DNA of 64,000 nt from a virus (IMGVR_UViG_3300028048_001497:64001-128000), one strand, 5' to 3'; shown: positions 858 to 56,055, numbered from the stretch's first letter. Made by a program: numbers and translations. Notes: generated from the sequence alone by a model not told the origin.

Positions 858-3590
858 ATGGTAAATCGTGATATAGTATTCTCTTTTGATGAAAATAAAT
901 ATGAACACCTTATGGAAGATATAAAAGATGTTTGGGTCGCTAGGGAATATATATATAATTTTACATTTAATTTTACTGTTAATAATTTAGAAGCACCGAT
1001 TAATAATATTATTATTTATAAAAATGGTGAGGTTTATAAAGATTATAAAATTAATCAGCGTTCTAGCATTAAATATGAGATTAAAGATGATAACTGGTTG
1101 GGTTTTGGTAATTACAATTATGCAGTAGAATTAATTCTTGAAGGTGGAAGAACTTTTAAGAATGATTTTTATTTTAAAATTGTTTATTCAAATGTACTAG
1201 ATGATATAAAGGTAAGAAGTTTTTCAACATATGGTTTACATGAAAATTATTCTTATTTAGATATTATCCTAAATCTTCAAACAGAATATCAAATAGATAA
1301 AATCTTGCTTTATACGCATATATTACCATTAACTGAAATAGATGAACATAGCAGAATATCGAAAGAATCATTAACTAATAACCATTATGATAGTGTGGAT
1401 ATTAAATGGAGTTATTTAGGAACGATGGAAATAAAAGATTATCAATATTTTTATCGTCAGTTACTTTTTGATACCACACTAAAAGAAGTTAGAACTGTGT
1501 TATATAAAGCAGTAATTATAACCACAAATGGAATAACAAAACCTGTTATTATGTCCACTTTGATTCAACCAAATTCATTGTCGTTAAATCAAATATCATA
1601 TATAAATGCAGATACAGATGAACAATATGGCATATATGGCGGTATTGTTGGAAAAATTGATAACAATTTAGATAATAATGCAGATGTAAATTTGGTTAAT
1701 CCTGAATATAATGGTAAAATATTTGAAATGGTAATAGATAAACGAGATAAATATAAGAATTTTATTGAAATAAAAGTAGACAATTATCTATTCCATGCAG
1801 AAAAATTTTCTACAGAATATTTAAGAAAAAAGTTTAGAAAACACGCAACCAATAAAAATCCAAACTCTTTTGTATTTAAAGGAAAAGGAATTATTACTAA
1901 AGTAATTGATGAATATAGGAATATTGTTCACAAAGATACATGTACATTCGTTATTTCGTTGTATTGTGGTGATGATATATTTACTTCTTTTACAATTCAA
2001 CCACAACATGATAATACATTGGCTTTAAGCACAAGAAAAACAGGAAATAGTATCGTTAAGTATAGTAAAGATAAAACAAATATTACATTTGATTCAACGT
2101 ATATAGATAAAACAGTTGATGCAGATGCTTTAACAGGGTATTTTACTTTGAATAAAAAGAAAAATGAGTTGACATTTAATTATCCAACATCAGACTATAC
2201 TTCAGAAACAATACCGTCTATATCAAAAATGCCTGTTCCAATTGGCACGCTTAACGAAAAATATTTTCAATACGATTATGTAACATATAATGATACGTAT
2301 TTCTTCTTTGTTGATTTTGATGAATTTGGAATACATTTAGTTCAATATGATGGAATTAATTATGATAAGTTCGATTATGACGTTCGTTTAACAGAGGAAA
2401 CGCTACAATATGTACGTACACATGATATTGGTTGCTTTGACAAAAAAGATAATCTAACATTAAAATTTTTAAATTTTGATGGGAAAAGCATATTGCAGAA
2501 AGTTATGGTAGAGAATTATGAACTATCTGTTATTAATTGTAATGATATGGTAACAAACATTTATGGTTCTTTAAGAACAAAACTTGTTGCATATATACAA
2601 GATATACCAGATATAATTGTTGATGGAGTTACATATGAATTAAAATACAATACAAAGTCTGCTTATAAAACGATTAGCTATGGCTTTGTTGATATGGGTT
2701 ATACAGATTTTAATTTGAAATTTTCTGCGCAAATGTTTTCATATAAAATAAAAATTCCAATTATTGCTAAATTTAATAATTCAAGTACAAATGTTAATGT
2801 TAGATTTAATGCAGATATGGAAGTTACTTGTAGGGAAGATTGTTTAATATATGATGATAATTTTTCTGAAGGAAATCCGAGATATGATATAGATATAGAC
2901 AATGTAAATGTTACATATCATGCGAAGGATAATGGATTGAATTTAATTCCGCAGACAGGTTATGAAAGTCTGAATGATAGATTTTTTGTTAAAGTTTCAA
3001 AACCGTATAAAACAAAGTCAATAGATGACTATGCAATTTTTAGAAATTGTAATTTATATTATGGGAGTATAAATTTATATGCTCCAAAACCACAAGATTT
3101 TTATGGTAATACAGATAAAAGAACATCATTTACATATAAAGATTTGTGTAGAGCGAGAGTATATGAAATTAACGAAAATATTTATATTATATTGAATCGT
3201 GTGAACGGTAAATTAATTAGAACGACTGTAAATGTGCTATTGAAAAAACAAATAGGACAAGAAATTATAGATACAGATGTATATTATAATGATTTGTATA
3301 CTTATTCTCAAAAGCAGTTACAATCATTTGATATGTTACTAAGTAAAGCATATTTGTACGATACAGTTGAAAGAGACATGTATATATTTTCAATAAGCGA
3401 TTTTGATAAGTTGTATTGCGGTGGCTATGATAATGTATATCATCAAATGCAATCCATTACAAGTCTTAGTGGAATTGTTAATGATGATAGAAAAGGATAT
3501 GCATTTAAATATTCATATCAATATCCGTTAAATATTAAAAATAGAAATCTGTATTTAAATGATATGGTGATTAACGAAAAAGGTGAATAA
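858..3590 (+). CDS. large hypothetical protein, possibly virion-associated
   Basis: 910-aa ORF, AAGGTGA RBS, beta-rich composition, downstream of late-promoter motif. Confidence 0.75.
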   Translation: MVNRDIVFSFDENKYEHLMEDIKDVWVAREYIYNFTFNFTVNNLEAPINNIIIYKNGEVYKDYKINQRSSIKYEIKDDNWLGFGNYNYAVELILEGGRTFKNDFYFKIVYSNVLDDIKVRSFSTYGLHENYSYLDIILNLQTEYQIDKILLYTHILPLTEIDEHSRISKESLTNNHYDSVDIKWSYLGTMEIKDYQYFYRQLLFDTTLKEVRTVLYKAVIITTNGITKPVIMSTLIQPNSLSLNQISYINADTDEQYGIYGGIVGKIDNNLDNNADVNLVNPEYNGKIFEMVIDKRDKYKNFIEIKVDNYLFHAEKFSTEYLRKKFRKHATNKNPNSFVFKGKGIITKVIDEYRNIVHKDTCTFVISLYCGDDIFTSFTIQPQHDNTLALSTRKTGNSIVKYSKDKTNITFDSTYIDKTVDADALTGYFTLNKKKNELTFNYPTSDYTSETIPSISKMPVPIGTLNEKYFQYDYVTYNDTYFFFVDFDEFGIHLVQYDGINYDKFDYDVRLTEETLQYVRTHDIGCFDKKDNLTLKFLNFDGKSILQKVMVENYELSVINCNDMVTNIYGSLRTKLVAYIQDIPDIIVDGVTYELKYNTKSAYKTISYGFVDMGYTDFNLKFSAQMFSYKIKIPIIAKFNNSSTNVNVRFNADMEVTCREDCLIYDDNFSEGNPRYDIDIDNVNVTYHAKDNGLNLIPQTGYESLNDRFFVKVSKPYKTKSIDDYAIFRNCNLYYGSINLYAPKPQDFYGNTDKRTSFTYKDLCRARVYEINENIYIILNRVNGKLIRTTVNVLLKKQIGQEIIDTDVYYNDLYTYSQKQLQSFDMLLSKAYLYDTVERDMYIFSISDFDKLYCGGYDNVYHQMQSITSLSGIVNDDRKGYAFKYSYQYPLNIKNRNLYLNDMVINEKGE

Positions 3591-3593
3591 AAA

Positions 3594-3628
3594 TAAAAAG
3601 TAGTATAATATAAATATACTACTTTTTA
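3594..3628. terminator. hairpin / intrinsic terminator
   Basis: taaaaagtagtata / tatactacttttta inverted repeat. Confidence 0.65.
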
Positions 3629-3643
3629 TGGAGCGAAAATATA

Positions 3644-4696
3644 ATGAAACATGTTTTACAAATTCATATGACAAATCAATGTAATTTGAAATGTCCATAT
3701 TGTTATATTCATCAGAATGATAAAAAAATAAGTTTGGATGGATTAAAAAAACAAATTGAGCATATACAAGAATTATCTTTGAGAATTGATGAATTTTTTG
3801 ATGGTGAATATGATGTAACATATTTTGGAGGAGAACCGTTAATTGAATATAACAATATTTTGTTGTTTGATAAATATTTAAAAGAAAATTTAAATATTGT
3901 ACATAGTTTTATTCAAACAAATGGCATTTTATTAAATCAAAATATAAAAAATGAATTAGGCAAAAGAAATATTCATGTTGGGATTAGTTGTGATGGTTGT
4001 GATGATAAGAATCATAAATACATAGAACAATTATATAAAAATAAAATTGTTGAAATGAATCCAAAAATGATGGTAAGTAATTATAATGTATCTGATTTGA
4101 TGAAGAATATTGTCTATTTTTATAAATTGGCTATGAATAATCAAATAGATAATTTTTATATAGATGTATCGTTTGTTAAAGATAACATTTGGGATGAAAA
4201 ATCATTAGGTATATTAAAACAACAATTGAATAGTTTGTATGATTTTATTGTTATGAATTATGACAGTTATCATAGATGGATTTATATAGGATTTGTAGAG
4301 AAGATATTGCAAAATATAAAGAATGGAAAAAGAAATTATGTTTGTTTTGCTGGCAGTAGTGGTTTTAGTTTAACTCCTGAAGGTATTATTTATCCTTGTT
4401 CTAGGTTTTATACAAATCATGAATATCCATTGTTTGATAGTAATAAAAATTTATTTTTTGAAGATAATATACAATTTATAAAATCTATGAATACAACAGT
4501 TGATGATAAATGTAATAAATGTGTTTTGAATCAATTTTGTAATCATGGATGTTTATATTCCCAAATTAAAAATGATGGAATTGTAGATGGATATTGCGAA
4601 GTATTAAAAATGTGTTTTCATATGGTAACAGATTTATATAAATATATGAAAAATAAATACAATATAAATATATTAGAAAGGGTGAATGGTAATTGA
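3644..4696 (+). CDS. radical SAM/SPASM domain protein
   Basis: CNLKCPYC (CxxxCxxC), FGGEP, QTNG; SPASM CFAG...GIIYPC...CNKC...CNHGC. Confidence 0.92.
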   Translation: MKHVLQIHMTNQCNLKCPYCYIHQNDKKISLDGLKKQIEHIQELSLRIDEFFDGEYDVTYFGGEPLIEYNNILLFDKYLKENLNIVHSFIQTNGILLNQNIKNELGKRNIHVGISCDGCDDKNHKYIEQLYKNKIVEMNPKMMVSNYNVSDLMKNIVYFYKLAMNNQIDNFYIDVSFVKDNIWDEKSLGILKQQLNSLYDFIVMNYDSYHRWIYIGFVEKILQNIKNGKRNYVCFAGSSGFSLTPEGIIYPCSRFYTNHEYPLFDSNKNLFFEDNIQFIKSMNTTVDDKCNKCVLNQFCNHGCLYSQIKNDGIVDGYCEVLKMCFHMVTDLYKYMKNKYNINILERVNGN

Positions 4697-5757
4697 GAAC
4701 ACCAATGGCGGTTTCTATTAATATGGGAAGTGCTTGTAATTTTCGTTGCAAATATTGTTTTGAAGTAAAAAATGGTGCAGTAGAAAAGAATGAAAGTATT
4801 CCTGAAAAAGTATTTAATCGAATTTTAGATGTTTTACATGAATTGGCAGATATAAATGATTTGCGAATTGAATTTTGGGGTGGAGAACCAACAGTATATT
4901 TTAAAGATATAAAACGAATTATATCAGAATTTTATGATAATGAAAATGTAAATTTCTTTATGTATACAAATGGTTCATTGGTACAATCGTTCAAAGATGA
5001 TTTGCTTGGAATAAAAAGTCATGTTAATGATAGGCTTCAAATACAAGTATCATATGACTATCAAAATATAGAAAACAATCAACGTTTGCAATTAAATCAT
5101 AGCATTGAAGAAACAGATAAAATGGTTCGAGAAGCAATTAAATGGTTGGATAAAAATAATTTTCATTTTGGTACAAAGTCAACATGTACAATGAAAGATT
5201 TGGAAGAACATTTATTTGAACAATATTTGAACTATGAGGATTTAAATAGGGAATTGAAACATAAAATTCCATTTGCTTTAACTCCTGATACATTAAATGT
5301 TGGTGATATTGATTATGATAAAATGAATTGTCAATTTGTAAAACTAATTCGCTATTTTTTAAAGAATAAAGAGTATGGACAAACAGGTTTTTTGTGGTTT
5401 GACCAGCCAAATAGTAATGCGGATTGTTCTGGTGGACATAATTCATTTCAAATAGATACAAATGGTGATGTATCATATTGTCATGGATGTTTGTATGGGA
5501 AAAAAGATTTAGTATATACAAATATTTTTGAAGATAATTTTTTGCATAAAGTAGATTGTAACTATTTAGTTGCAAATAATATGTTTAAAAAGAATGAACA
5601 ATGTTCAAAATGTGAATCGTTGTTTTGCTTTAGATGTAATGCAATAAATAGCAAAGGCAAAAAGGAAAATTGGAACAAGTCAAATAATCCTAAAGTTTGT
5701 AAGTTGTATAATAAAATCTCTGATTACATTAGAGCTTATTTTAAGCTAACTCATTGA
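4693..5757 (+). CDS. radical SAM/SPASM domain protein
   Basis: CNFRCKYC, WGGEP, YTNG; SPASM CSGG...GDVSYCHGC...CSKC...CFRC; start overlaps the upstream stop. Confidence 0.92.
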   Translation: MRTPMAVSINMGSACNFRCKYCFEVKNGAVEKNESIPEKVFNRILDVLHELADINDLRIEFWGGEPTVYFKDIKRIISEFYDNENVNFFMYTNGSLVQSFKDDLLGIKSHVNDRLQIQVSYDYQNIENNQRLQLNHSIEETDKMVREAIKWLDKNNFHFGTKSTCTMKDLEEHLFEQYLNYEDLNRELKHKIPFALTPDTLNVGDIDYDKMNCQFVKLIRYFLKNKEYGQTGFLWFDQPNSNADCSGGHNSFQIDTNGDVSYCHGCLYGKKDLVYTNIFEDNFLHKVDCNYLVANNMFKKNEQCSKCESLFCFRCNAINSKGKKENWNKSNNPKVCKLYNKISDYIRAYFKLTH

Positions 5758-5771
5758 TATTTATTATATAG
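5758..5771 (+). promoter_or_regulatory. putative phage late promoter TATTT-N6-TAG
   Basis: tattt attata tag. Confidence 0.55.
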
Positions 5772-5829
5772 TAGTATGAAAATTTTTAAATTTTTAATAT
5801 AAAAATAATTATTAATGGAGTTGATATAG

Positions 5830-7242
5830 ATGTCTGAAGTACAAACTATGGATAAATACGTAGAAGGATTTTATCAGATTATTAAAGATTCGGACGTAGT
5901 TGGTGGAACATCCAGATTTCCAATTTGTAAACCATATCAAAGTGAAGATGGAGCTATTGGTGATAAAAACCATGTTTTTTCTACAAGTGTATGGAATGAT
6001 TTTGGCGATTCTGAAAAGAATTGGTTATCTGCAAATAACTATCAAAATCGCTCTACGAAATTACGTGAAGATTTTACAGATAATCCAATAACAAATAATG
6101 AATGGAACGCATTACTTGTTAAAATACGTGAAGAATTTATGATACGTAATAATTTCTTGTCAAATTATGGTAGTTTAAAACCACGTATTAATAACATGTA
6201 TATACAGAATGGTCATCAGGGGTATTTTGCAACAGGTGATACAATTAGGCAAGATGATATATCACGTATCTTTGATGATATATTAACATTGTTGAGTATT
6301 GAAGTTCCTTCTGTTGCGCGGTCAGGAAGTTCGGTTAATAACCGTTTACCATTAAATACTTTATCTTCGGATGTTGCAAAAACAATAGATGTAGCACAAT
6401 CAAATGGGTCATATACAAAAGTAAAAGTTGAACCACACAACGTAGATTTTGCACAACTAGCTTATAATTTAAATGCTTATGATATAAACGAAGGTTCTCA
6501 TAAAGGAAATAACTGGTTTACTGGTTCACATATGCGTGAATATGTATATCGTCATTCAGGTATTAGAACGGAAGAAACAAGTTCTGTCGATGGTACAGTA
6601 AATAATGGTATTGTTCCTACACATGAACCAACAGATTTGACAACAAGTACAACATACGGTTATGCTGAAGAACCCCCTAGAAATAATAGTACTAGTTCTC
6701 AATTAATTACACATCGTAGACCATTTGGTAATATTGATTATGTAAAATTGGTAAAAGATGGTTCTTTGAAAAAGCCAATTATTGATGGCGATGGATATGT
6801 TGTTTCTGATGAATATATGGAAATGGTGCATACTCGTTGGGCATTTTTGGGTTCAGTTGCCAATGCAGGAAAAATTAGTCCAATGTATGTAAAACATATT
6901 ATAGGGACAAGAGAAATAGTTGTTAAAGATAAAGACGGAAATGTTATGAAAGATACATATGGCAATCCAATTAAACAAATAGAAACAAAAGATTTTTCTG
7001 CTGATACTAACATAACAGTTCCAGACTTCTGTAAGAATCCATTATCAATTACGCATGGAGAATATACATTAAATATAGCTGCATCTAATGTTGCTACATA
7101 TTTTATGAAAGTTATGAATTTAATTTCATCTAAATGTGTATGTAATTGCAACTTTTGTTCTTGCTTTGGTCATGAAGCTGCGTGTGCTTGCTATGTTGTA
7201 AAAGTAACAGGTTGGTGCTATACATATCAGTATATTCTTTAA
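5830..7242 (+). CDS. putative virion protein with Cys-rich C-terminus (candidate radical SAM substrate)
   Basis: ends ...KCVCNCNFCSCFGHEAACACYVVKVTGWCYTYQYIL; follows the rSAM/SPASM pair. Confidence 0.6.
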   Translation: MSEVQTMDKYVEGFYQIIKDSDVVGGTSRFPICKPYQSEDGAIGDKNHVFSTSVWNDFGDSEKNWLSANNYQNRSTKLREDFTDNPITNNEWNALLVKIREEFMIRNNFLSNYGSLKPRINNMYIQNGHQGYFATGDTIRQDDISRIFDDILTLLSIEVPSVARSGSSVNNRLPLNTLSSDVAKTIDVAQSNGSYTKVKVEPHNVDFAQLAYNLNAYDINEGSHKGNNWFTGSHMREYVYRHSGIRTEETSSVDGTVNNGIVPTHEPTDLTTSTTYGYAEEPPRNNSTSSQLITHRRPFGNIDYVKLVKDGSLKKPIIDGDGYVVSDEYMEMVHTRWAFLGSVANAGKISPMYVKHIIGTREIVVKDKDGNVMKDTYGNPIKQIETKDFSADTNITVPDFCKNPLSITHGEYTLNIAASNVATYFMKVMNLISSKCVCNCNFCSCFGHEAACACYVVKVTGWCYTYQYIL

Positions 7243-7260
7243 TGGAAAGGAATTTTAACT

Positions 7261-7530
7261 TTGTTAAAAGAACAAACAAAAGAAGAAAGACAAAAAATGA
7301 TGGAATTTATGCTAACAGAACATAAATTCCTAGAATTAAACAGACAAATGATTTATCCTATAGATAAAGTTGCATATCAAGCAATTAATAATATTTTATC
7401 TATGTCAATGATTAGTATGGGAAGAAAATACGGACTTGACTATGATGAAAATGTTCAACTAAAAGAAGAAAAACAAGATAAAAATATAGATAGTATTATT
7501 GATGAAATAAATAAGGGGACAGAAGAATAA
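7261..7530 (+). CDS. hypothetical protein
   Basis: GGAAAGGA RBS, TTG start, coupled to the next gene. Confidence 0.75.
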   Translation: MLKEQTKEERQKMMEFMLTEHKFLELNRQMIYPIDKVAYQAINNILSMSMISMGRKYGLDYDENVQLKEEKQDKNIDSIIDEINKGTEE

Positions 7531-8165
7531 TGGCAACAATGAATTTTTATAGCAAACTTCTTGAACAGAGTGATAAGAAATTTTTAATTGAGCCTTTTGA
7601 AAAATTAGATGTAGAGCCAATTTTGCTAGACACAAAAGATTATGTTTGGCTTACTCCTGATGCATATACTTATGTAAAAACAAAATTGGATATTGAGCAT
7701 CGTGAACCACAGATGAAAATTTATATTACAGGAGAAGTTGACCCGAATAAAGCATATGATGTTTCGGATTTACAAGAGGTAGAACGTGTTCAAGAAGAAA
7801 CTGATGAAGATGTACTAGATGCTTATAAAGAAAAAACATTACGTTTGATTAATGAACAAATTAGTAATCAATTAATGATTTCAAATTTTGAATTATATCA
7901 TTTCTTTAAATTAAATCATTATTTGGAATCAAAAGGTTTCTTTATTACAGATGAAAATCGTGAAGAAAAATATTTGGAAGTAATTAATAGCGGTGATACA
8001 GAAGCATTAGAAAAACTTTCAGAATATCTTGATTCACTTGATGATTTTAATGCTATAGATGCAACTTATATGAAATATAAGGAATATAAGAACAAAATTA
8101 AGGCAGCAAAAACTAAAGAGGAAATTAGTGATGCATATTATGAATTGTCAGGGAAACTGTTTTAA
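7530..8165 (+). CDS. hypothetical acidic protein, possibly tail-fibre assembly chaperone-like
   Basis: C-terminal KIKAAKTKEEI resembles the ends of DUF4376-type tail-fibre chaperones. Confidence 0.5.
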   Translation: MATMNFYSKLLEQSDKKFLIEPFEKLDVEPILLDTKDYVWLTPDAYTYVKTKLDIEHREPQMKIYITGEVDPNKAYDVSDLQEVERVQEETDEDVLDAYKEKTLRLINEQISNQLMISNFELYHFFKLNHYLESKGFFITDENREEKYLEVINSGDTEALEKLSEYLDSLDDFNAIDATYMKYKEYKNKIKAAKTKEEISDAYYELSGKLF

Positions 8166-8967
8166 TATAGTTTATATGACAAATCAATCATATTTATTCC
8201 AAACATATGTTTCTATGAAATCACTAAAATATAATAAACATCGTGACATTTGTTACGATGTTTATTTATTATGTATTGAATTTAGAGATATAGGAAAAAT
8301 AAAAGAATTAGATAGTGATGATTTTCATATAAAACCAATTTTTATAGATAAAAACATATTTAAGACTGAAAATAATGCCGGTGTTGTTTATTATAAACTG
8401 TTGTTACATGAACTGTTGGATTGCGATTTTGTTTTTCATATAGATTCTGATACAATCGTAATAAAAGATATATCAGATGTTTTCAAAATAAATATAAATG
8501 ATTATTTTTGTGGTGCAGTTCGTGACAAGATAAATGGATTTTCTTATTTTAATGCAGGGAATGTATTATTCAATTTAAAGAAAATACGAGAAAAGATAAT
8601 AGATAAAGATAAGACAATGTATGTTTATTATGAAGAGTTGAATAATGAGTTGAAAGATAATAAAGGCTTTTTATGGGAACAAGATATTATGAATAAAGCG
8701 TTTAAAAATTATATTAAATATATTGATTATGGGTATAATTTTTTGGCTAATACATATAGCAAATATAAATTTAATGAGTTGGTTCGTTTATATGGAGAAC
8801 CAATTAAATCAGACAATATTAAAATAATTCATTTTGCTAGTAACCCTAAACCTTGGAAAAAAAGTTCATTGTTTGGTGAAATTTGGAAAATGTATGCAGA
8901 AAATAGAATAGATAAAGAATATGAAAATAAAATTTTAAGGATGGCTTGTCGTGAATACAAAAAATGA
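8128..8967 (+). CDS. glycosyltransferase family 8
   Basis: HIDSD (DxD), YFNAGNVLFNL, EQDIMN, IIHFASNPKPW. Confidence 0.92.
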   Translation: MMHIMNCQGNCFNIVYMTNQSYLFQTYVSMKSLKYNKHRDICYDVYLLCIEFRDIGKIKELDSDDFHIKPIFIDKNIFKTENNAGVVYYKLLLHELLDCDFVFHIDSDTIVIKDISDVFKININDYFCGAVRDKINGFSYFNAGNVLFNLKKIREKIIDKDKTMYVYYEELNNELKDNKGFLWEQDIMNKAFKNYIKYIDYGYNFLANTYSKYKFNELVRLYGEPIKSDNIKIIHFASNPKPWKKSSLFGEIWKMYAENRIDKEYENKILRMACREYKK

Positions 8968-10093
8968 TATGTTTATGATGCAATTTTTGTTAGGTAATAA
9001 ATTTGATAAATTAAAACCAAATAATGATACAATTATTGTGACAAATAGCATGGGTCGTAGAGAAGCACATAGTTATTTGTGGGGAGCAGAAAGATATACA
9101 TTAAAAATTTGTACAGAGTTATCAAAAAAATATAAAGTTCATTTGTTTATAGCTGGTGGAAAATTTTTAGATATTCATAATGTTACAATCCATCCAAATA
9201 TAGTTGCTTATTTATCTCGTGGAACAATTAATGATTATGCAATTAAAATTAGAAATTTAAATCCTAAGTGCATTTTTTGTAATGCTAGTTGTGGACAGGA
9301 TGCGTTATTTTGGACAATTATATCTAAAGTTTCAAAAGTACCTATAATTATGTTTTTTCATAATGAGCCTGAATTTATGAAAGATACAATTTCGCATATA
9401 TTAGCTATGGATTATATTAAAAATCAGGATATAATGAAATCAGGAGAAAGATTATATGATGTTGTATTAAAATATTGTGATAGATTAGCGTTTTTATTAC
9501 CACAATATATAGATGAAAGATATAAAAACAAATCATATGTTTTTTATAATTGTATAGATATTCCTAAAAATGTAGATATTATTAAAAAAAGAAAAAATGT
9601 TTTATATGTTGGAAGAATAAATTCAGATACAAAACGAACACAAATTTTATTGGATTGGATAAAAAATACAAAATATGATTGTGATGTTGTTGGATATAGT
9701 TATCATGGATATGGATATATAAACATGGATGAATATAAATTTAGTAATATTCATTATTTTGGTTATCAAGAAGATGTATCTAGGTTTTATAAAAATGCGA
9801 ATGTATTGGTAATTCCATCAAGATATGAAGGATTGCCAACAGTTATGATAGAAGCATTATCATATGGTGTGCCAATTATAGGATTTAAAGAATGTAAGGT
9901 TATGAATTATCTTATTAAAGATGGATATAATGGATGGTTAGTGGATGATAATTTTTCTGATGTTATGAATTATGTATTATCTATAAATGATATGATTAAT
10001 ATTCGACAAAATTGTTTGCAAGAAGCTAAAAAATATGATATTCATAATATTATGAAAAAAATAAATGAATGTATTGAGAGTGTTGCAGAATGA
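8951..10093 (+). CDS. glycosyltransferase family 4 (GT-B)
   Basis: GAER, LYVGRI, PSRYEGLPTVMIEALSYGVP. Confidence 0.92.
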   Translation: MNTKNDMFMMQFLLGNKFDKLKPNNDTIIVTNSMGRREAHSYLWGAERYTLKICTELSKKYKVHLFIAGGKFLDIHNVTIHPNIVAYLSRGTINDYAIKIRNLNPKCIFCNASCGQDALFWTIISKVSKVPIIMFFHNEPEFMKDTISHILAMDYIKNQDIMKSGERLYDVVLKYCDRLAFLLPQYIDERYKNKSYVFYNCIDIPKNVDIIKKRKNVLYVGRINSDTKRTQILLDWIKNTKYDCDVVGYSYHGYGYINMDEYKFSNIHYFGYQEDVSRFYKNANVLVIPSRYEGLPTVMIEALSYGVPIIGFKECKVMNYLIKDGYNGWLVDDNFSDVMNYVLSINDMINIRQNCLQEAKKYDIHNIMKKINECIESVAE

Positions 10094-11001
10094 AAATTAA
10101 TTTGATTTATTTATTTTACGAATTAAATGGAGCATATACATCATTTGAAGATACATTTTATAATTTAAGACGATTTACAAATCATGATATTCGATTTATT
10201 ATTTTATATGAAGATAAAAATTTATTAAGAAGATTTCATGAATATTTAGCTTTTGGTGATGGAATTTGTTATCTTCCATTAGCAGTTGGAAAATACATGG
10301 ATACATATGGAAATACAAATATTATTAAACATAAAAAAATGGTTTATGATATAAAAGGTGATATAAACATTATTAGTTCTGAAATTATTAAATTACAGAA
10401 ACAAAATCGTTTTAAACAATCTGCTAATCAAGAATTTCTTTTATATCCTGCATTTATTTACAAGCAACAAAATAAAAACCAACAAATTTTAAAAGATGAA
10501 ATGGATTATATAAAAGAACATCATGTATTAACAATTTGTAATAAATTTAATTCAAAGTTTGTTGATAATAGTTTTGTTTGGTATATGAAGTTTTCTCCTG
10601 AAAGAATTAATAAACTGAAAAATTTAGTTTCAAATAAAAAAGATGCTCTAGTTGCAGAGGAATATTATCACAGTAAAATAAAAGAAGAAAATATTAAGCC
10701 ATTTGATTATAAAGAATATTTATATTATCGTTATGATAAGAAAAATAATGATAATTTGTATACAGATGATGGTGCTCGGTATTATGAAAACATTGGTAAG
10801 TTACTATTTGAATTTATTTTATTAGGAAAAAATTCAATTTATTTACCAAAAAATAAAAAGTTTGATGATGGATTAACAGAATTTATGAATGATATGGGAT
10901 TAGATGACAATAAAGAGTATAAATTTTCTGATAAAGATAAACAATTTTTTGAGGATAAATTGTTTATGAAGTCGGATGATAAACTTTTAACTATTTTTTA
11001 A
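10090..11001 (+). CDS. hypothetical protein in glycosylation operon
   Basis: 303-aa ORF coupled by ATGA overlap. Confidence 0.75.
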   Translation: MKINLIYLFYELNGAYTSFEDTFYNLRRFTNHDIRFIILYEDKNLLRRFHEYLAFGDGICYLPLAVGKYMDTYGNTNIIKHKKMVYDIKGDINIISSEIIKLQKQNRFKQSANQEFLLYPAFIYKQQNKNQQILKDEMDYIKEHHVLTICNKFNSKFVDNSFVWYMKFSPERINKLKNLVSNKKDALVAEEYYHSKIKEENIKPFDYKEYLYYRYDKKNNDNLYTDDGARYYENIGKLLFEFILLGKNSIYLPKNKKFDDGLTEFMNDMGLDDNKEYKFSDKDKQFFEDKLFMKSDDKLLTIF

Positions 11002-11016
11002 GGAAGAAGTTTTTGT

Positions 11017-12606
11017 ATGAAAATATTAGGAATACAATGTTATCAAGATTATAATGTTACATATTATAATACAGATACAAAAGAAATGAAGTTTTTGGAA
11101 TTAGAAAAATTATTAAAAAAGAAACATTTTTCTTTCCATTCAGATAAAATTGATTATATGTCTGAAATAGATAATATTTATCGTGATAATCTTAGAAATA
11201 ATTTATATAAATGTCAAAAATTAATTCATAAAGAATTTAATGTTGATAAATTTGACGTGATTTGTTGGAATTATAAAACATTTAAAGACGGTTATTTAAA
11301 ACAGGAATCATATGATTTTGTAAAAATGTTAGAGCGTTGTGACATTTTAAAATTTCATCATCAAGAAAATCATGTGTTACCAGCAATAATTGAAAATCAT
11401 TTATCTGATGCGCTTTGTTTATCTATAGATGGTAAGGGTGATGGAAATCATGCTTTTTATCATTGGAAAGATAATAAATTGAATAAATTGTTTCAAGAAC
11501 AAAAATTCTCATATGGTATGTATTATGAAGTGTTGTCCTGCTATTTTTTAGATAAACGTCATAAATATGAACAAGGATTAGAAGGTAAATTTATGGCATA
11601 TGCAGGTTTATCTAATAATTTTGTTCAAATTAAAGATATAGATGTTTTTGAAAAAACAATTAAAGACGTGAATTGGAATATATGGGAAGATAAAGAAAAT
11701 ATAGAAACATATATTTATAATTTCTTAGATGAACAATCTAAAGAATTTGATAAGTATGATTTGGCATATACCATGCAAAAATTGTGGATAGATTGGGTAA
11801 TGAGAGAACTATCTTCTTATAGACATGAAAGTGATATATTAGTCCTTTCTGGTGGTTGTGCTATGAATTGTATGTTAAATTATGTGATTGAAAAAACAGG
11901 TTGGTTTAATCATATATACTATACCCCTGTTGTAGCAGACACAGGTCAATCATATGGTGCAGTTTTAAATTATTTGTTGCATTATAAACCAGATGAATTA
12001 AATTATATTAAGTCTAAAAACTATACTGTTACTCAATCAATGCAAGAAAAAGATTTGTATCAACAACATAGTTCTGAATTTAACGATATAGATATAAACG
12101 CTTTGGTTGAAAAATTGGCTAATGATAAAATTGTTGGTGTTTGTCGTGGGAATATTGAAATGGGTGCAAGAGCCTTGGGTAGACGTAGCATTTTATCTTC
12201 TCCATTTCACAAAGAAATGCATGATAAATTAAATACAATAAAGGGTAGAGAATGGTATCGTCCATATGGAATTATAATTCCTGAAGATAAAATAAGTGAA
12301 TATTTCGATATAGATACTGATGTCCCATACATGAATATTTTAGCAAAACCAAAAATAGATAATTTATTAGGTGCTATGCATAAAGATGGAACAATTCGTA
12401 TACAAACAGTTAGTGAAAAAGATGATAAATGGTTATATAATTTGTTATATGCGTTTGGTAATAAAACAGGAGTTGCAATTTTAATTAATACTTCATTTAA
12501 TGATAGTGGTTTGCCAATTTTTAATTATTTTAGTGATATGTATCGTATGTATCAAGAAAAATTGGATGGATTAATTATTGAAAATAAAGTTTCGTATAAA
12601 GAGTGA
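11017..12606 (+). CDS. NodU/CmcH-family O-carbamoyltransferase
   Basis: HHQENH, DGKGD, EGKFMAYAG, LSGGCAMN, GARALGRRSIL, KGREWYRP, HKDGTIRIQTV, LINTSFN. Confidence 0.93.
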   Translation: MKILGIQCYQDYNVTYYNTDTKEMKFLELEKLLKKKHFSFHSDKIDYMSEIDNIYRDNLRNNLYKCQKLIHKEFNVDKFDVICWNYKTFKDGYLKQESYDFVKMLERCDILKFHHQENHVLPAIIENHLSDALCLSIDGKGDGNHAFYHWKDNKLNKLFQEQKFSYGMYYEVLSCYFLDKRHKYEQGLEGKFMAYAGLSNNFVQIKDIDVFEKTIKDVNWNIWEDKENIETYIYNFLDEQSKEFDKYDLAYTMQKLWIDWVMRELSSYRHESDILVLSGGCAMNCMLNYVIEKTGWFNHIYYTPVVADTGQSYGAVLNYLLHYKPDELNYIKSKNYTVTQSMQEKDLYQQHSSEFNDIDINALVEKLANDKIVGVCRGNIEMGARALGRRSILSSPFHKEMHDKLNTIKGREWYRPYGIIIPEDKISEYFDIDTDVPYMNILAKPKIDNLLGAMHKDGTIRIQTVSEKDDKWLYNLLYAFGNKTGVAILINTSFNDSGLPIFNYFSDMYRMYQEKLDGLIIENKVSYKE

Positions 12607-13367
12607 TAGAATTGAAACATATTCCTTTGATAGAATATCATTTAGTAAATCATTGTAATTTAAATTGTAAGGGGTGTGCTCATTTTGCACCATTGGCAAA
12701 ACATTGGTTTGCAGATATATATGAATTTGAGAAAGATTTAAAACAACTATCTTCATTGGTTGAAATTGATAGACTAACTTTGTTTGGTGGAGAACCATTG
12801 TTAAATGATAATATAAATGATTTTTTAATTATAGCAAGAAAGGTTCTTCCAAATACAGATATTAGTGTTTTGACAAACGGTGTTGTTTTATTAAAAAAAA
12901 TAAGTTCTATGGCAAAAGTTCTAAAAGATAATAATATTTATATTGATATTACTTGTTATCCAATTAATGTTGACTATGAAATAGAATTAAAAATGTTAAA
13001 AGCATTAAAGATACCATATAGAATTTATAATGATTTAGAACGTGTAAAAACATTAAGGCATCATATTTTATCTCATATAAAAAAAGAAAATACATGGGAT
13101 TGTTTAATGATAAATTCAAATTCGGTTCAATTAAGAAATGGTAAATTGTATATATGTCCTTTGCAAGCGTATATTGATATTTTTAATGATTATTTTCACG
13201 AAAATTTTAAAGTAGATAAAAATAATATTTTGGATATTTATAATTGTACGGACGATGATATAGTAAATATGTATCATAGAAAAAATAGTTTTTGTGAATA
13301 TTGTAGAGAACCAATAGAAGGGAATAAATATTCTACATCTAAAAGGGAGAAGTTAGAATGGATGTAA
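12603..13367 (+). CDS. radical SAM protein
   Basis: CNLNCKGCAHFAP, FGGEPLL, LTNG, C-terminal CEYC. Confidence 0.9.
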   Translation: MIELKHIPLIEYHLVNHCNLNCKGCAHFAPLAKHWFADIYEFEKDLKQLSSLVEIDRLTLFGGEPLLNDNINDFLIIARKVLPNTDISVLTNGVVLLKKISSMAKVLKDNNIYIDITCYPINVDYEIELKMLKALKIPYRIYNDLERVKTLRHHILSHIKKENTWDCLMINSNSVQLRNGKLYICPLQAYIDIFNDYFHENFKVDKNNILDIYNCTDDDIVNMYHRKNSFCEYCREPIEGNKYSTSKREKLEWM

Positions 13368-14170
13368 AATATTGTTTAAAAACACAAATTGTGGATGAAT
13401 GTAATTTAAATTGTAAAGGGTGTGACCATTTTGCTCCATTAGCAAAACCTTGGCATCAACCATTAGTAGATTTTGTTAATATGATGAAAACGGTTCGTAA
13501 TACAATTGGAAATAATATCAAGGAAATTGAATTATACGGTGGAGAACCTTTATTACATGAACAATTATATGAAATGATTTTAGTTTTGAAAGTTCTTTTC
13601 AACAATGAAATTATAATTTCAATTGAAACAAATGGCATTTTATTAAATAATTTTTTACAAAGTCATAAAAATTTAATTAATGATAATAAAATAGAAATTA
13701 AAATTACGGAATATAAAAGCACAAAAGGAATTGTAAATAGATTAAAGAATAATTATTTACATAATAATATATATCAAGCAAAAATGTTAAATAAAGAACT
13801 TGAATTAACAAATCATTTTTCATATAAAGAAAACTTGTTTAATGTTAACATTAACAAAAAACAAAATGAACAAATTATTGATGTATATAATAATTGTTAT
13901 GTAAAATGTGAGGAAAAAGATTCTTTGTGTTTAAGAGATTGGATTTTATCTCCATGTCCAATGACAATGTGCTTGAATATTTTTGATGATTTTTTTAATG
14001 AACAATATGATAATAAGAATAATCATGTTGTTGTTACTGATAAATTATCTGTTAAAGATTTAGATAAAATGGCACATTATCCATGTGATTTTTGTAAGCG
14101 ATGTGGAAATATTATTTATGGTATTCCATATGGCATTTCTAAAAAGGATAGAAAAGAATGGCAGATGTAA
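13358..14170 (+). CDS. radical SAM protein (paralog of upstream gene)
   Basis: CNLNCKGCDHFAP, YGGEPLL, ETNG, C-terminal CDFCKRC. Confidence 0.9.
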   Translation: MDVKYCLKTQIVDECNLNCKGCDHFAPLAKPWHQPLVDFVNMMKTVRNTIGNNIKEIELYGGEPLLHEQLYEMILVLKVLFNNEIIISIETNGILLNNFLQSHKNLINDNKIEIKITEYKSTKGIVNRLKNNYLHNNIYQAKMLNKELELTNHFSYKENLFNVNINKKQNEQIIDVYNNCYVKCEEKDSLCLRDWILSPCPMTMCLNIFDDFFNEQYDNKNNHVVVTDKLSVKDLDKMAHYPCDFCKRCGNIIYGIPYGISKKDRKEWQM

Positions 14171-15093
14171 AATTTTATATTATTATTCCAACATATAATC
14201 GTTTTGATAAAATAAAAAAAGCGATACAAAGTGTATTGCAACAGATATATGATAAGTATCATATAATTATAGTTGATGACCATTCAGATAAAAATAATCA
14301 TATACAATTAGAAAAATATACTAATTGTAATGATAGAATATCATATTATTATTTGCCTGAAAATAGAGGTCATTGTTATGCTAGAAATTTTGCGTTAAAT
14401 CATATTGAAGAAATTGATAGTTGGGTAAAATATTTAGATGATGATGATTTAATATTACCAAATTGCTTAAAAGATATTGCAGATTATATATCAAAAAACA
14501 AACAAATAAATGTTTTAACAACAAATTTTGATATATTAAACGAACATGATGAAGTGATTAAGCATATTGAACCTAATTATAATATTGATAGTGTTTTTAA
14601 TGGAAATTTAGACACTTGTTGCATTTGTCATAAATATTCATTGTTTAAAGAAATTGGTGGATGGGATGAATTTTTATATCGTATGGCAGATGATGATTTT
14701 TTCTTTAAATATATTACTAATGGTAAATATGGGTTTTTAGATAAAACAACCTCCGTATTTTATCGGACAAGTGATAAAGGTAGAGTATCGAACCAGACAA
14801 CGAATTTAAAATATGTTAATTATATTGCAGACAAATATAATTATCATTATAATAAAAAATGTTTGATTATATGTGATAATAAATATATTGACAATGTGTT
14901 AAATACTGAATTTAAGATTGAATCATTTATGAAGTTTGATATAAATAAAAAGCCATCAAAAGATTATGATTATTTGATTTATATTAAAGATTTTAACGTT
15001 CTTCAAGATTTGTATGATGAACTATATCGTACTAAGAAAGATTTGGTTAAAATAAAAAATTCTATATTGATAAAAAATAGATTAAAGAATTGA
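14158..15093 (+). CDS. glycosyltransferase family 2
   Basis: IIIPTYNR, IIVDDHS, NRGHCYARN, YLDDDD. Confidence 0.92.
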   Translation: MADVKFYIIIPTYNRFDKIKKAIQSVLQQIYDKYHIIIVDDHSDKNNHIQLEKYTNCNDRISYYYLPENRGHCYARNFALNHIEEIDSWVKYLDDDDLILPNCLKDIADYISKNKQINVLTTNFDILNEHDEVIKHIEPNYNIDSVFNGNLDTCCICHKYSLFKEIGGWDEFLYRMADDDFFFKYITNGKYGFLDKTTSVFYRTSDKGRVSNQTTNLKYVNYIADKYNYHYNKKCLIICDNKYIDNVLNTEFKIESFMKFDINKKPSKDYDYLIYIKDFNVLQDLYDELYRTKKDLVKIKNSILIKNRLKN

Positions 15094-23667: not shown

Positions 23668-25833
23668 ATGCCATATAGAGTACCTGGTGCATATGCGAGA
23701 TTTGTAAAATCTGCAAGCACAGTAAATAATGTTGGGCAAACTCGTGTTCTAGGTTTAATTGGCACGGGCGCAAATTATTTTGAAGTTTACAATGAAGCCA
23801 TAAAAAAGAGTGATTCTCAATCTTATGATTCATTGAAATATAAGAATGTTTTTGAAATTATTTCTGTTACAAATAAGGCTTTAAGTAATGGTGCAATTGT
23901 AAAAGGTTCTACTGTTTACAATGAAGGCGCAAATGAAGCCTTTATGTTAAAAGATGGTAATAAAATTGCATGGAATACAATTCAGGACGCAGAGTATAAA
24001 GTAGTTGCACAAGCAAATGAACGTTCCTTACAATTAAAAGACCAAATTACAATTATTCCAAATGATGATTTACAGTATCAGATTGTTGATGGTTCTTATA
24101 CATTAGAAATTACATATTTGGAAGATGCTTTTGACCATGCCGATTCAGCACACGTTAATTGTGGTTGCTATCGTGTAACAGATAATGCTTCTAAGAAAAT
24201 TATGGGTGAATGGTCAGTAAGTGATGATTTTAATATTGCTGCAATCCCAGGTTTAAAATTAAAGATTACTGATTTGTTTGTTCCTGATAGAGACGGCAAT
24301 TCAATTACAAAAGTTGGTGATAGTGTTACAATTAAAACACGAGCACCAAAAACAGAAATTGAACCACAAGTTGTTTTCGATGAAACAATTACACAGTATA
24401 GCCAAAAACTTCGTGAATCTTTCCTTCCATTGAACAAGGATAAGGTTGATGATGAATCTAAATATGAATATTTCATGATTGTTGATTCTTCTAATGTTGT
24501 TGATGGTCAGTTCGTTGTTCAAGTTACAGACCCATTAACAAAAGAAATCAAGATTTATCAAGAAGATATTGCAGGCACAGAAATTACACCTGCTCTGTAT
24601 GAGGGCGCAGTTGGTGCAGTTACAGAATATCTAAATGTAATCCCTGGTATTACATTCATGCTCCCAGATTTTGATAATACTGCAATTACAACAGGTGATT
24701 GTGTTCGTATTATTACAAAGAAAGCAGTCTTTGGTAAAGCAATCGCAGAAAATGAAGTCTATTATGTTTCTTATAAATATAAGAAAGCAGAAGAAGATTA
24801 TGAACCAAAGATTTTCTATACTTACGATGATGTGGTTCAAGAATATGGCAACTATGATGTTACGGCTTCTTCTGTTGTTACAAATTCATTATCATTAGGC
24901 GCAGAATTGGCTTTCCGTGCAGGTGTTACAACAATTTGTTGTGTACAAGCTAAGAACGATTCTGATTATGAAATGAATAAAGCAATTGACAAGTTACAGA
25001 AAGATGTTGCAGGTACAGAAAATGTTAATGCTATCGTTCCTTTAACAACTTCAACCGTTGTTGGTGCTCATGCACAGGCACACGTTGATGCTATGTCAAG
25101 CGAATCAGGCAGACATGAACGTATGGTTTATCTTTCTGCTTATCCTGGTCAGAAGATTAATAAAAATGCAACCGCAGCAGATAAGACATTGGGTATGAAA
25201 CAACAAGCAGAAGCATATAATGATGAACGTGTTGTATATGTAGTCCCTGGTCGTGTTGCTTATGATGTCAAGAATGTTCAAACAGGTCGTATTAATACAC
25301 GTACATTACCAGGTTGCTATCTTGCATTAGGTGTTGCAACAGTTGGTTTTACACATGATGTTGCAGAACCATTAACACGTAAGAAGATTGGTTGCGGATT
25401 CAAAGGACTTCTTGATACATATACAGAAGTAGAAAAGAACGCACTTGCAGAAAGTGGTTGCACAGTTGTACATGAAAAGAGTAATGCTCTTGTAGTTCGT
25501 CATGGTATTACAACTTGTGATGATGAAGTTAATACAACAGAAATTACACTTATCCAGATTAAGGACTATGTAATTGCGCAGGTTCGCAAGACTTGTGATG
25601 AATTGTATGTCGGTATTAAAAACCTTCCATCTGCTAAGAGTAATGTTCAGTATTCTATTAATAGTATTCTTAGCCAGTTTGTAAGTCAGGAAATCATCTT
25701 AGGATATAGTGGCCCGACCGTTTCAGATTCACCAGATGACCCACGTGAAATCTTGGTTAAGTTTGAAATTGAAGCAGTATATCCATTGAATTATATTACA
25801 ATCTCCTTTGGATTTTCTTCAACAGGTTCGTAA
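23668..25833 (+). CDS. contractile tail sheath protein
   Basis: N-terminal YRVPGAY, EPLTRK, VRHGITT, C-terminal VYPLNYITISF; 721 aa. Confidence 0.92.
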   Translation: MPYRVPGAYARFVKSASTVNNVGQTRVLGLIGTGANYFEVYNEAIKKSDSQSYDSLKYKNVFEIISVTNKALSNGAIVKGSTVYNEGANEAFMLKDGNKIAWNTIQDAEYKVVAQANERSLQLKDQITIIPNDDLQYQIVDGSYTLEITYLEDAFDHADSAHVNCGCYRVTDNASKKIMGEWSVSDDFNIAAIPGLKLKITDLFVPDRDGNSITKVGDSVTIKTRAPKTEIEPQVVFDETITQYSQKLRESFLPLNKDKVDDESKYEYFMIVDSSNVVDGQFVVQVTDPLTKEIKIYQEDIAGTEITPALYEGAVGAVTEYLNVIPGITFMLPDFDNTAITTGDCVRIITKKAVFGKAIAENEVYYVSYKYKKAEEDYEPKIFYTYDDVVQEYGNYDVTASSVVTNSLSLGAELAFRAGVTTICCVQAKNDSDYEMNKAIDKLQKDVAGTENVNAIVPLTTSTVVGAHAQAHVDAMSSESGRHERMVYLSAYPGQKINKNATAADKTLGMKQQAEAYNDERVVYVVPGRVAYDVKNVQTGRINTRTLPGCYLALGVATVGFTHDVAEPLTRKKIGCGFKGLLDTYTEVEKNALAESGCTVVHEKSNALVVRHGITTCDDEVNTTEITLIQIKDYVIAQVRKTCDELYVGIKNLPSAKSNVQYSINSILSQFVSQEIILGYSGPTVSDSPDDPREILVKFEIEAVYPLNYITISFGFSSTGS

Positions 25834-27928: not shown

Positions 27929-28105
27929 TTGACATCTTTCCCCACCTAAAGAGGTGGGGGATTCCTACTTCTTTGACCGTAGCGTATGCGGTGAAACCGC
28001 ATGAGGTATGGCGTAGCCATGCCTTTGGTACGTCTTACACAATCTCCATAGGCTTAGTTTTATACTGATTCCGCAAGCCCTGCGGTACAGTTTTTATATG
28101 GTTTA
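27929..28105 (-). ncRNA. omegaRNA (reRNA) scaffold of the TnpB element
   Basis: structured region between the tnpB stop and the right end; conserved in the MITE at 49.1-49.3 kb; 5' boundary approximate. Confidence 0.65.
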
Positions 28106-29215
28106 GGCTACTGAAAGTAGCCTTTTACCTTCTTTTAAGATATTTATGCTTGCGTTTATATCTCGGTCATGCGTAGCATGACATTTCGGACATTCCCATT
28201 CTCTGATTGACAAATCTTTTACTTTTAGATTTTTATATCCACAAGAACTACAAATCTGAGAACTAGGAAAGAAAGTATCTACCTTTACTACTTGGCAATT
28301 GCATTGCCATTTTGCTTTGTATTCAAGCATAGTAACAAATTTATTCCATGAAGAATCCTGAATACTTTTAGCTAATCTATGATTTTTTACCATATTTTTG
28401 ATTTTTAAATTTTCAATAGCTATGACTTGGTTTTCATCTACTATCTTTCTTGAAAATTTGTGAAAGAAATCATTTTTAAAATTGGTAATTTTTTCATATT
28501 GAATAGCTAATTTAATTCTTCTTTTTTCATGGTTTTGAGATTTAGGCATTGTTCTTGAAAATTGTTTTTGCAATCTTTTTAATTTCTTTTCAAGTTTTTT
28601 AATATGCTCTGTGTCCATGTGGTACTTCGTACCGTTGGACAGGATAGCAAAATCTTTAATACCCAAATCAATGCCAACTTCGTTGGTTTGTGAGACACCG
28701 TAGGTGTCTTTTTCTTCCACAAGAAGTGAAACAAAATACTTATTAGATGGTGTCTTTGACACGGTAGCATTTTTGATTATTCCATTGAAGAATCTACTCT
28801 GCCTTACTTTTACAAGAGTTTTGAGTTTAGGCAAGCGTAGCTTGCTATTCTCAAATCTCACATTATTATTTGTTGTAGAAGTAGTATAAGAATTCATTCC
28901 ATGTTTTTTATGAAATTTTGGAAATCCTGCTCTTTTTTCAAAGAAATTTTTATAAGCGGTTTGCAACCGCTTTGCAGACCAAAACAACGAATTTGAATCA
29001 CTCAATTTCAACCATTTATATTCAGGATATTTTTTTAAATCTGTAATGTGTTTTGTCATTTGAGAAAAATTCATAGATTTCTTTTCATTTTGCCAAAGGT
29101 CTTTTCTAAGACCTAACAAATGATTGTAAACAAATCTACAATTCCCAATGTTTTGGTCAAAAAATTGTTTTTGTTCTTCATTAGGATATAATCTAAATTT
29201 GTATGCTTTTAGCAT
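28103..29215 (-). CDS. tnpB: RNA-guided endonuclease TnpB
   Basis: [12 protein letters not shown]; Ruv[20 protein letters not shown]; Zn finger CSSCG..CPKC; catalytic D-E-D intact. Confidence 0.96.
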
Positions 29216-56031: not shown

Positions 56032-56055
56032 AGAAACTTTATGGTGGTGAATAAA

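Follow-up and report, generated by a model that had tools for sequence, protein, structure and literature searches.

Why would a phage keep two radical S-adenosylmethionine (SAM) enzyme genes directly ahead of a gene for a large protein with a Cys-rich end? The question was raised by positions 3644–8165 of a 64,000-nucleotide stretch of viral DNA (the window), which covers bases 64001–128000 of the 174.5-kb IMG/VR virus record IMGVR_UViG_3300028048_001497. Here, the enzyme genes rsA and rsB precede an open reading frame (ORF) for a protein of 470 amino acids (aa), ORF470. The best explanation, which we consider rather likely, is that rsA and rsB are PapB-like maturases, that their substrate is the C-terminal Cys motif of ORF470, and that the product would be a thioether-stapled tail of a virion protein.

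The Cys tail of ORF470

The two enzymes and the three parts of ORF470 are arranged as follows:
3644..4696, + strand: rsA, radical SAM/SPASM enzyme, 350 aa (Pfam Radical_SAM 50.1 bits; TIGR04085 38.7 bits)
4693..5757, + strand: rsB, radical SAM/SPASM-like enzyme, 354 aa (Pfam Radical_SAM 43.0 bits)
5830..7071, + strand: ORF470 body, residues 1–414, fast-evolving and confined to one clade; its N-terminal FPIC[KRH]P[YF] (Cys33) is invariant
7072..7134, + strand: helix ahead of the motif, residues 415–435, NIAASNVATYFMKVMNLISSK, common to the Cys-heptad proteins described below (hhalign)
7135..7242, + strand: Cys tail, residues 436–470 and stop codon; CVCNCNF (one full heptad), CSCFGHE, then AACACYVVKVTGWCYTYQYIL

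The Cys residues of ORF470 (5830–7242, 470 aa) are at positions 33, 401, 436, 438, 440, 443, 445, 452, 454 and 463. A preliminary description of the locus had placed two of them before residue 436 and the other eight within the final 35 residues, with the tract starting at nucleotide (nt) 7135, and this was confirmed. As a sequence pattern, the tail is far beyond chance. ORF470 had no match in Pfam, PHROGs or NCBIfam.

Only about 14 relatives of ORF470 were found in searches of 5.8 and 1.8 billion proteins. They are 255–525 aa long and 28–58% identical; identity is 54–83% for their enzymes and 45–82% for p211, a protein encoded further downstream. The tail is almost invariant among them, with the consensus C[VI]CNCN[FY]CSC[FY]G[HND]E[AV]xCxCYVVK[VA]xGWCYxY, and its His is replaced by Asn or Asp in some. 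Since the third codon positions of the tail vary synonymously, the constraint acts on the protein. Some relatives continue for 3–14 residues past the tail, which is therefore not a strict C-terminal signal.

The gene order rsA, rsB, Cys-tail protein, ~88-aa protein, ~210-aa protein was kept in every contig of an ORF470 relative with enough flank, and survives inserted DNA methyltransferases or small ORFs. Because all relatives form one syntenic clade, this kept order alone is weak evidence. In the lineage with the short form (255–256 aa), rsB and the Cys-tail gene are separated by one or two inserted genes for DNA methyltransferases, with the module otherwise unbroken (L010:1186–3407, L017:2535–3737 and L018:6737–7939).

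The DNA pattern of the tail motif was absent from 185k prokaryote genomes, and ORF470 with its region gave zero matches to 50,697 phage records by blastn and tblastn. An AlphaFold2 (AF2) model of ORF470, built from a 7-row alignment, predicted a helix at residues 421–434 and a low-confidence tail; its mean predicted local distance difference test score (pLDDT) was 40, so a fold search with the model was not usable. Feature and structure searches of the ESM Atlas with ORF470 returned weak, uninformative rows only.

Relationship of the enzymes to PapB

Both enzymes belong to the radical SAM superfamily. Their scores lie above the Pfam Radical_SAM (PF04055) cut-off of 29.5 bits, and each carries CX3CX2C (CNLKCPYC at residues 13–20 of rsA, CNFRCKYC at residues 15–22 of rsB) and GGEP motifs. 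The early description of two coupled radical SAM/SPASM genes before the 470-aa protein was borne out, with the genes at 3644–4696 and 4693–5757. With the TTG at 4693 as its start codon, rsB overlaps rsA by 4 nt; with the ATG at 4705, a gap of 8 nt separates them.

SPASM domains are defined by a C-terminal 7-Cys motif for two auxiliary [4Fe-4S] clusters, which includes CX2CX5CX3C. rsA has such a domain, both by the NCBIfam SPASM model TIGR04085 (cut-off 27) and by C290-x2-C293-x5-C299-x3-C303. rsB has an invariant variant block, CX2CX4CX2C, plus invariant C245, C263, C266 and C336, and no SPASM model match was listed for it; its invariant Cys residues are 15, 19, 22, 165, 245, 263, 266, 304, 307, 312, 315 and 336. 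The enzymes are only 27% identical to each other, over 120 residues, and read as non-paralogous, or at least as not recent paralogues.

For both enzymes the top NCBIfam model was that of the ranthipeptide maturase PapB (NF047865), aligned over its full length with 113.5 bits for rsA and 68.3 bits for rsB. The model cut-off is 340 bits, so neither is a member of the family. The next models included thioether maturases of the SCIFF, QhpD and CcpM types as well as CXXX-repeat and anSME types, all far under their cut-offs. The full-length alignment indicates that rsA and rsB share the PapB architecture of a radical SAM core and a SPASM domain, with no N-terminal RiPP recognition element (RRE) extension (RiPP, a peptide made by the ribosome and then modified post-translationally). 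Consistent with this, alignments to the CteB and QhpD models begin at about model position 95–99, meaning that the N-terminal recognition domain is absent from rsA and rsB, as it is from PapB. CteB/SCIFF, QhpD and anSME, SPASM enzymes with Cys-rich peptides or whole proteins as substrates, share superfamily and domain logic with the phage enzymes, and CteB and QhpD differ by this missing domain. QhpD and anSME act on protein substrates.

The likeness to the freyrasin system PapB/PapA extends to the substrate, since PapA-type substrates have repeated Cys with nearby Asp, Asn or Glu, as do the heptad proteins. The differences are a 470-aa substrate instead of a short peptide, two non-paralogous enzymes, a phage host, and a C-x-C-[N/D]-C-N-Y unit instead of the C-x3-D of PapA. 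A second comparison is offered by Methanococcus voltae. Its SPASM enzyme CrpC was shown by experiment to form ranthionine thioethers on its Cys-rich neighbour CrpA; C-x-x-Q/D-type motifs were noted in CrpA, and phages are not mentioned (PMC13692751, 2026). There too, the SPASM enzyme gene lies beside the gene of a large Cys-rich repeat protein. Unlike rsA and rsB, CrpC has an RRE and belongs to the TIGR04463 family, for which rsB scored 35.6 bits against a cut-off of 525, and CrpA has 17-residue repeats and is cellular and archaeal.

A complex of rsB, ORF470 residues 408–470, three 4Fe-4S clusters and SAM was predicted with a score of 0.01. This counts as 'no answer', neither for nor against binding.

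Many relatives have an ORF of 80–148 aa between rsA and rsB (including L003, L004, L005, L007 and L022–L024), and the window has none. In L022–L024 this small protein has three Cys in a C-terminal CxxCxxxxC-like patch. Such a protein might play an accessory part or be a second substrate.

Cys-heptad proteins beside the enzyme pair

Evidence from outside the ORF470 clade came from a search of viral contigs with an rsB alignment, which found three distant contigs (28–32% identity). In two of these three, the gene directly after the rsB orthologue encodes a protein of 203 or 291 aa with 9–20 tandem heptads, and the same loci hold an rsA orthologue and a p211 homologue. The heptad, C-T-C-[N/D]-C-N-Y, is the same unit as CVCNCN[F/Y] of ORF470. 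A DNA-pattern scan requiring two consecutive heptads matched 47 viral contigs and 7 contigs of metagenome-assembled genomes. In small proteins of these contigs, the unit C-x-C-[N/D]-C-N-[Y/F] occurs in 2–25 tandem copies. The consensus from 227 units was C / T / C / N or D / C / N / Y, with a spacing of 7 or 8 residues.

Orthologues of rsA, 24–32% identical, adjoin heptad proteins in many contigs, as do rsB orthologues, and a shorter third type of radical SAM enzyme is present at some loci. A PapB match at E ≤ 1e-5 was found for 61 of the 65 neighbouring radical SAM enzymes, none of which was reported over the cut-off. Co-occurrence was assessed at 40 distinct motif loci whose upstream sequence extended for 3 kb or more, counting enzymes on the same strand and within 6 kb. 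At 32 of them there was a gene of the rsA or rsB type, and 30 had both types. The co-occurrence of the Cys motif with radical SAM/SPASM pairs across phages, proposed from the single locus, was therefore positive and broad.

The ORF470 locus has the features of this module. One full unit, CVCNCNF at residues 436–442, follows a helix of the form I.A..[IV]N.L...[IL]N, and the adjacent genes are of the rsA, rsB and p211 types. In hhalign, the ORF470 and heptad families matched with 93% probability over 34 columns, corresponding to the helix and the first heptad. Beyond this element the proteins differ: a profile of the ORF470 body found zero relatives outside its own clade among all fetched ORFs, heptad proteins included. 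ORF470 has one full heptad on a large, unrelated, fast-evolving body, and the Cys/aromatic cap CSCFGHE..CxCYVVKV.GWCY.YQY occurs only in the ORF470 clade, not in other heptad proteins.

The motif and both enzyme orthogroups were found together in many non-syntenic contigs with quite different flanking genes. On this comparative evidence, the enzyme–substrate pairing of rsA and rsB with the Cys motif appears well supported. The helix at 415–435 is a candidate recognition element, and the Cys tail of ORF470 is the proposed substrate core.

Two further arrangements of such genes were observed. L038:4721–7285 and L046:7386–9443 contain three or four tandem paralogous genes, each with exactly four CTCNCNY heptads at its end. 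These genes stop about 12 residues past the last heptad, inside a motif, SDE[QR][LV]K, that resembles a cleavage site. In L038 the following base already starts the next gene. A second cassette is present in the genome of the ORF470 phage itself (L009:7737–11869, 10.3 to 6.1 kb before the window start), in the order radical SAM/SPASM gene rsC, 192-aa ORF, rsD (a paralogue of rsC, 43% identical), 297-aa protein and 104-aa hydrophobic protein. From rsC to the 297-aa protein it spans L009:7737–11496, about 6.5 kb ahead of the window. The 297-aa protein has about 22 Cys in a dense C-terminal C-Q/C-E repeat. This cassette parallels rsA/rsB-ORF470 with different enzymes and a different Cys grammar.

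Heptad proteins and the phage particle

Is the Cys-motif protein part of the virion? Eight heptad proteins out of 39 carry the Pfam S74 domain, an intramolecular chaperone of tail fibres, immediately behind their last heptad; about 14 others have an SDxRLK-type cleavage motif at their end. The heptad protein L023:7094–7998, which has tail-fibre-like genes upstream, ends with SDIRLKTEIIYF, and the remainder of its S74 domain is encoded in a different frame by the ORF that follows; a frameshift, an assembly error or a real split could account for this. ORF470 itself has neither the S74 domain nor the SDxRLK autocleavage site of Peptidase_S74.

Cultured Campylobacter phages also have rsB-type genes. 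In CP220, gp140 (534 aa, six annotated 21-bp repeats) adjoins RnlA, a 'tail fibre attachment catalyst', an rsB-type radical SAM gene and baseplate genes. Its orthologue in IBB_35 is the tenth coding sequence of contig 3, with a computed mass of 60,317 Da, 534 aa, 6 heptads and 35 Cys. Gene 3-9, listed with 60,318 Da, was identified by mass spectrometry in purified IBB_35 virions with 2.6% coverage (PMC3322345, Table S2). Gene 3-0 (19,413 Da) bears out this numbering, and so does that paper's naming of gene 3-1 as gp48 (PMC3322345). At least one heptad protein is thus a particle component. These Firehammervirus proteins, CP220 gp140 and IBB_35 gene 3-9, resemble the ORF470 system in their six heptads with further CxC pairs and in an rsB-type radical SAM gene 2.3 kb downstream. 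They differ in being 534 aa long with internal heptads and no adjacent rsA-type or p211 gene, and outside the motif they have no similarity to ORF470.

By analogy with these proteins, ORF470 is most likely a particle protein, associated with the tail or a fibre. The suggestion of a RiPP-like crosslinking of a virion protein is supported in part: PapB-like enzymes, S74 domains in motif relatives and one motif protein in virions speak for it, and the lack of an S74 domain in ORF470 itself does not.

Proposed mechanism

In the mechanism that we propose, rsA and rsB would recognise the amphipathic helix ahead of the Cys motif. Each enzyme would cleave SAM reductively, abstract hydrogen from an acceptor residue and join that residue to a Cys sulfur. 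Likely acceptors would be the conserved Asn/Asp of C-x-x-[N/D] registers, or Glu449 in C445-x3-E449, a Glu that is invariant. The heptad contains two overlapping C-x-x-[N/D] registers, C1-x-C3-[N/D]4 and C3-[N/D]4-C5-N6, and we infer that these two may be served by the two enzymes. Several small thioether rings might then lock the last ~35 residues into a rigid knot with no oxidant needed. The stapled tail would form a structural or host-contacting end of the particle protein, with p211 as a conserved partner in the module.

A more specific version is tentative, and we give it somewhat less than an even chance. Here, a dedicated radical SAM/SPASM pair would put thioether staples, possibly between chains, into the Cys-heptad element with which a particle protein ends. 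The staples would replace disulfides without a need for oxygen, and would harden or shape the tip that contacts the host. A single heptad with a Cys/aromatic cap would then suffice, and could be grafted onto large, rapidly diversifying bodies.

Alternative explanations

Several observations weigh against stapling of a virion protein by rsA and rsB. ORF470 has only ~1.5 heptads, no S74 domain, and a body unrelated to the heptad proteins. Its virion role is borrowed from distant motif relatives, and the detection of IBB_35 gene 3-9 in virions rests on the 2.6% sequence coverage. Both the modification of the ORF470 tail and its chemistry are read from sequence comparison. The enzymes score far under every curated family cut-off, so the reaction could differ, for example C–C cyclophane formation or oxidation. 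Six of the 40 motif loci (L040, L041, L042, L062, L064 and L078) have no nearby rsA- or rsB-type gene; the other two of the eight negative loci, L035 and L039, lie on contigs that end just short of the enzyme position in close relatives. Three viral negative loci were checked elsewhere in their records, with no radical SAM match, and these records are 7–33% complete fragments. Conversely, L024 has the enzyme pair and no motif gene in its 8.6 kb. Lastly, the locus continues into an operon of glycosyltransferase, carbamoyltransferase and radical SAM genes (see below), which offers other conceivable radical SAM substrates.

The main rival, unlikely in our judgement, is that the Cys tail is a module for binding metal, as a thiolate cluster with Zn, Fe or Cu or as a 'wire' of metal running along a trimeric fibre's axis, and that the radical SAM enzymes act on something else or only help to load the metal. 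Alternating CxCxC is a pattern well known from metal binding, and its spacing, like the eight Cys in 35 residues, suits thiolate clusters; a His often persists behind the second unit, and the crosslinks are themselves deduced from sequence. There is also a precedent for metal-stacked fibre tips in the T4 gp37 needle, whose HxH iron sites place periodic metal ligands at the tip of a trimeric fibre, although its ligands are His instead of Cys and it has no dedicated enzymes. However, the tail His becomes Asn or Asp in relatives, the tail had no Zn-finger or metallothionein family match in Pfam or NCBIfam, and the invariant Asn/Asp and Tyr of the heptad are atypical thiolate-cluster ligands. The motif is also associated specifically with two orthogroups of SPASM maturases in genomes that differ greatly, and a plain metal site would have no need of these enzymes. 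Stapling and metal binding can also coexist, with some Cys stapled and others metal-bound. A different radical SAM reaction is less probable still: a C–C cyclophane via Tyr, Phe or Trp, conversion of Cys to formylglycine as by anSME, or action on Cys33 of FPIC[KRH]P[YF]. Cyclophane maturases (YhhB, GrrM, DynA) and anSME do match, at E 1e-13 to 1e-17, the ORF470 tail is rich in invariant aromatics, and the C-x-P at Cys33 loosely recalls the C-x-P-x-R of sulfatases. Against this, PapB, SCIFF and CcpM-type models were top-scoring across 61 of the 65 neighbouring radical SAM enzymes, the element common to all loci is the Cys heptad and not the N-terminal motif, and Cys33 is followed by x-P-[Y/F]-[G/Q], not x-P-x-R.

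ORF470 as a giant RiPP precursor, in which a body of ~435 residues serves as leader and the stapled tail of ~35 residues is set free as a bioactive peptide, aimed, for instance, at competing bacteria or phages, seems very improbable. The arrangement of a leader-like helix and a C-terminal core would fit, the enzymes are of RiPP type, and large precursors are known in other RiPP classes, such as the borosins. Classical RiPP precursors, however, are short and have a leader protease or exporter in the cluster, while ORF470 has 470 aa and no protease or transporter family was found in the conserved module. The body of ORF470 also has invariant motifs of its own, and motif relatives carry fibre S74 domains, one being present in virions. 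That the genes lack any functional link, being neighbours by shared descent in one phage clade, is scarcely credible. Every ORF470 relative does come from a single syntenic clade, as this idea would have it, yet the motif recurs with both enzyme orthogroups in many non-syntenic contigs with differing flanks, so it is already disfavoured.

Downstream small proteins and promoter motif

Two small genes follow ORF470:
7261..7530, + strand: ORF89, small helical protein, syntenic in all members of the ORF470 clade and absent elsewhere (37–83% identity)
7530..8165, + strand: p211, 211 aa, N-terminal beta domain and long helical bundle (AF2 pLDDT 90)

The jackhmmer search with ORF89 gave 20 matches, every one in the ORF470 clade, and the protein had no family match in Pfam, PHROG or NCBIfam. 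For p211, jackhmmer found 56 homologous ORFs across the ORF470 clade and most heptad loci, beside the Cys-motif gene. Fold searches with p211 (Foldseek against PDB and BFVD, VIA-align wide, Atlas) found only a generic likeness to helical bundles (Z ≤ 8.8), with further weak matches to uncharacterised phage proteins. Of the idea that the small genes encode partners, the part concerning p211 gained from its recurrence at most motif loci; p211 has no informative fold match, and ORF89 is clade-specific. One of the two had been said to end like a tail-fibre chaperone, which came down to a weak PHROG match of p211 residues 173–200 (E 3.7e-4). The late-promoter motif assigned to ORF470 fared no better: AGTAGTAT is present upstream of rsA and ORF470, yet its 4 occurrences in the window compare with 2.2 expected. 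Upstream of 44 genes, no k-mer was clearly enriched, and a sigma-70 scan stayed at shuffle level.

Genomic setting

CheckV estimated the 174.5-kb record to be 35% complete, which implies a very large phage. The GC content is 25–36%. The phage is a myovirus: a tail sheath gene lies at 23668–25833, on the same strand as the rsA-p211 module and 16 kb downstream of ORF470. A tube-initiator-like gene at 56041–58245 (734 aa), whose match to tail-tube initiators is weak, shares that strand. The window region 37152–63814 contains four giant ORFs, of 1956, 1963, 2024 and 1824 aa. Three of these run back to back, with a 136-aa and a 734-aa ORF between them; the only one scanned, at 37152–43022, had no Pfam match. 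The phage genome also has two IS605 OrfB/TnpB-type genes (window 28103–29215, − strand, and 34454–35575, + strand), with HTH, OrfB_IS605 and Cas12f-like TNB domains.

Upstream of rsA, the window encodes a 910-aa orphan protein (858–3590) that had no family match and is 44–74% identical across the whole ORF470 clade. One feature was read between this gene and rsA, with both arms located in the sequence:
3599..3627, + strand: AT-only inverted repeat, AGTAGTATA ... TATACTACT, followed by a T-run

The repeat is terminator-like, and a new transcription unit may start there. The terminator scan did not call it, because its stem has no G–C pairs.

Past p211, a continuous operon at 8128–15093 encodes GT8 and GT4 glycosyltransferases, a 303-aa protein, a NodU/CmcH-type carbamoyltransferase, two short radical SAM proteins (254 and 270 aa) and a GT2 glycosyltransferase. 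Homologues of the 303-aa protein occur at some heptad loci, and a paralogue is present at L009:1958–2794. GT8, GT4 and the carbamoyltransferase were considered as universal parts of the module and rejected, as they are confined to the ORF470 clade.

Significance

Radical SAM enzymes are known to form thioethers in small RiPP natural products and, in one archaeal case, in a Cys-rich protein (PMC13692751, 2026). The kind of chemistry, SPASM thioether maturation, is familiar, and its setting in a phage is undescribed in the literature that we searched, in which we found no paper linking radical SAM thioether chemistry to a virus particle or describing the Cys-heptad family. The abundance of radical SAM genes in Campylobacter phages has been remarked on as unexplained (PMC2853527).

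The ORF470 locus presents the most reduced form of the motif, ~1.5 heptads and a cap, on the largest body, and so helps to define the minimal recognised element. If our reading is true, the helix, the Cys motif and the two enzymes would make a compact genetic module for protein engineers. It would also mean that many large phages with anaerobic and aquatic hosts use their own enzymes to put covalent staples into a tail or fibre component, which would explain the long-noted abundance of radical SAM genes in Campylobacter and other big phages. With such stapling, the structural proteins of viruses would gain a new class of post-translational modification by enzymes, and virion stability or host recognition a new determinant.

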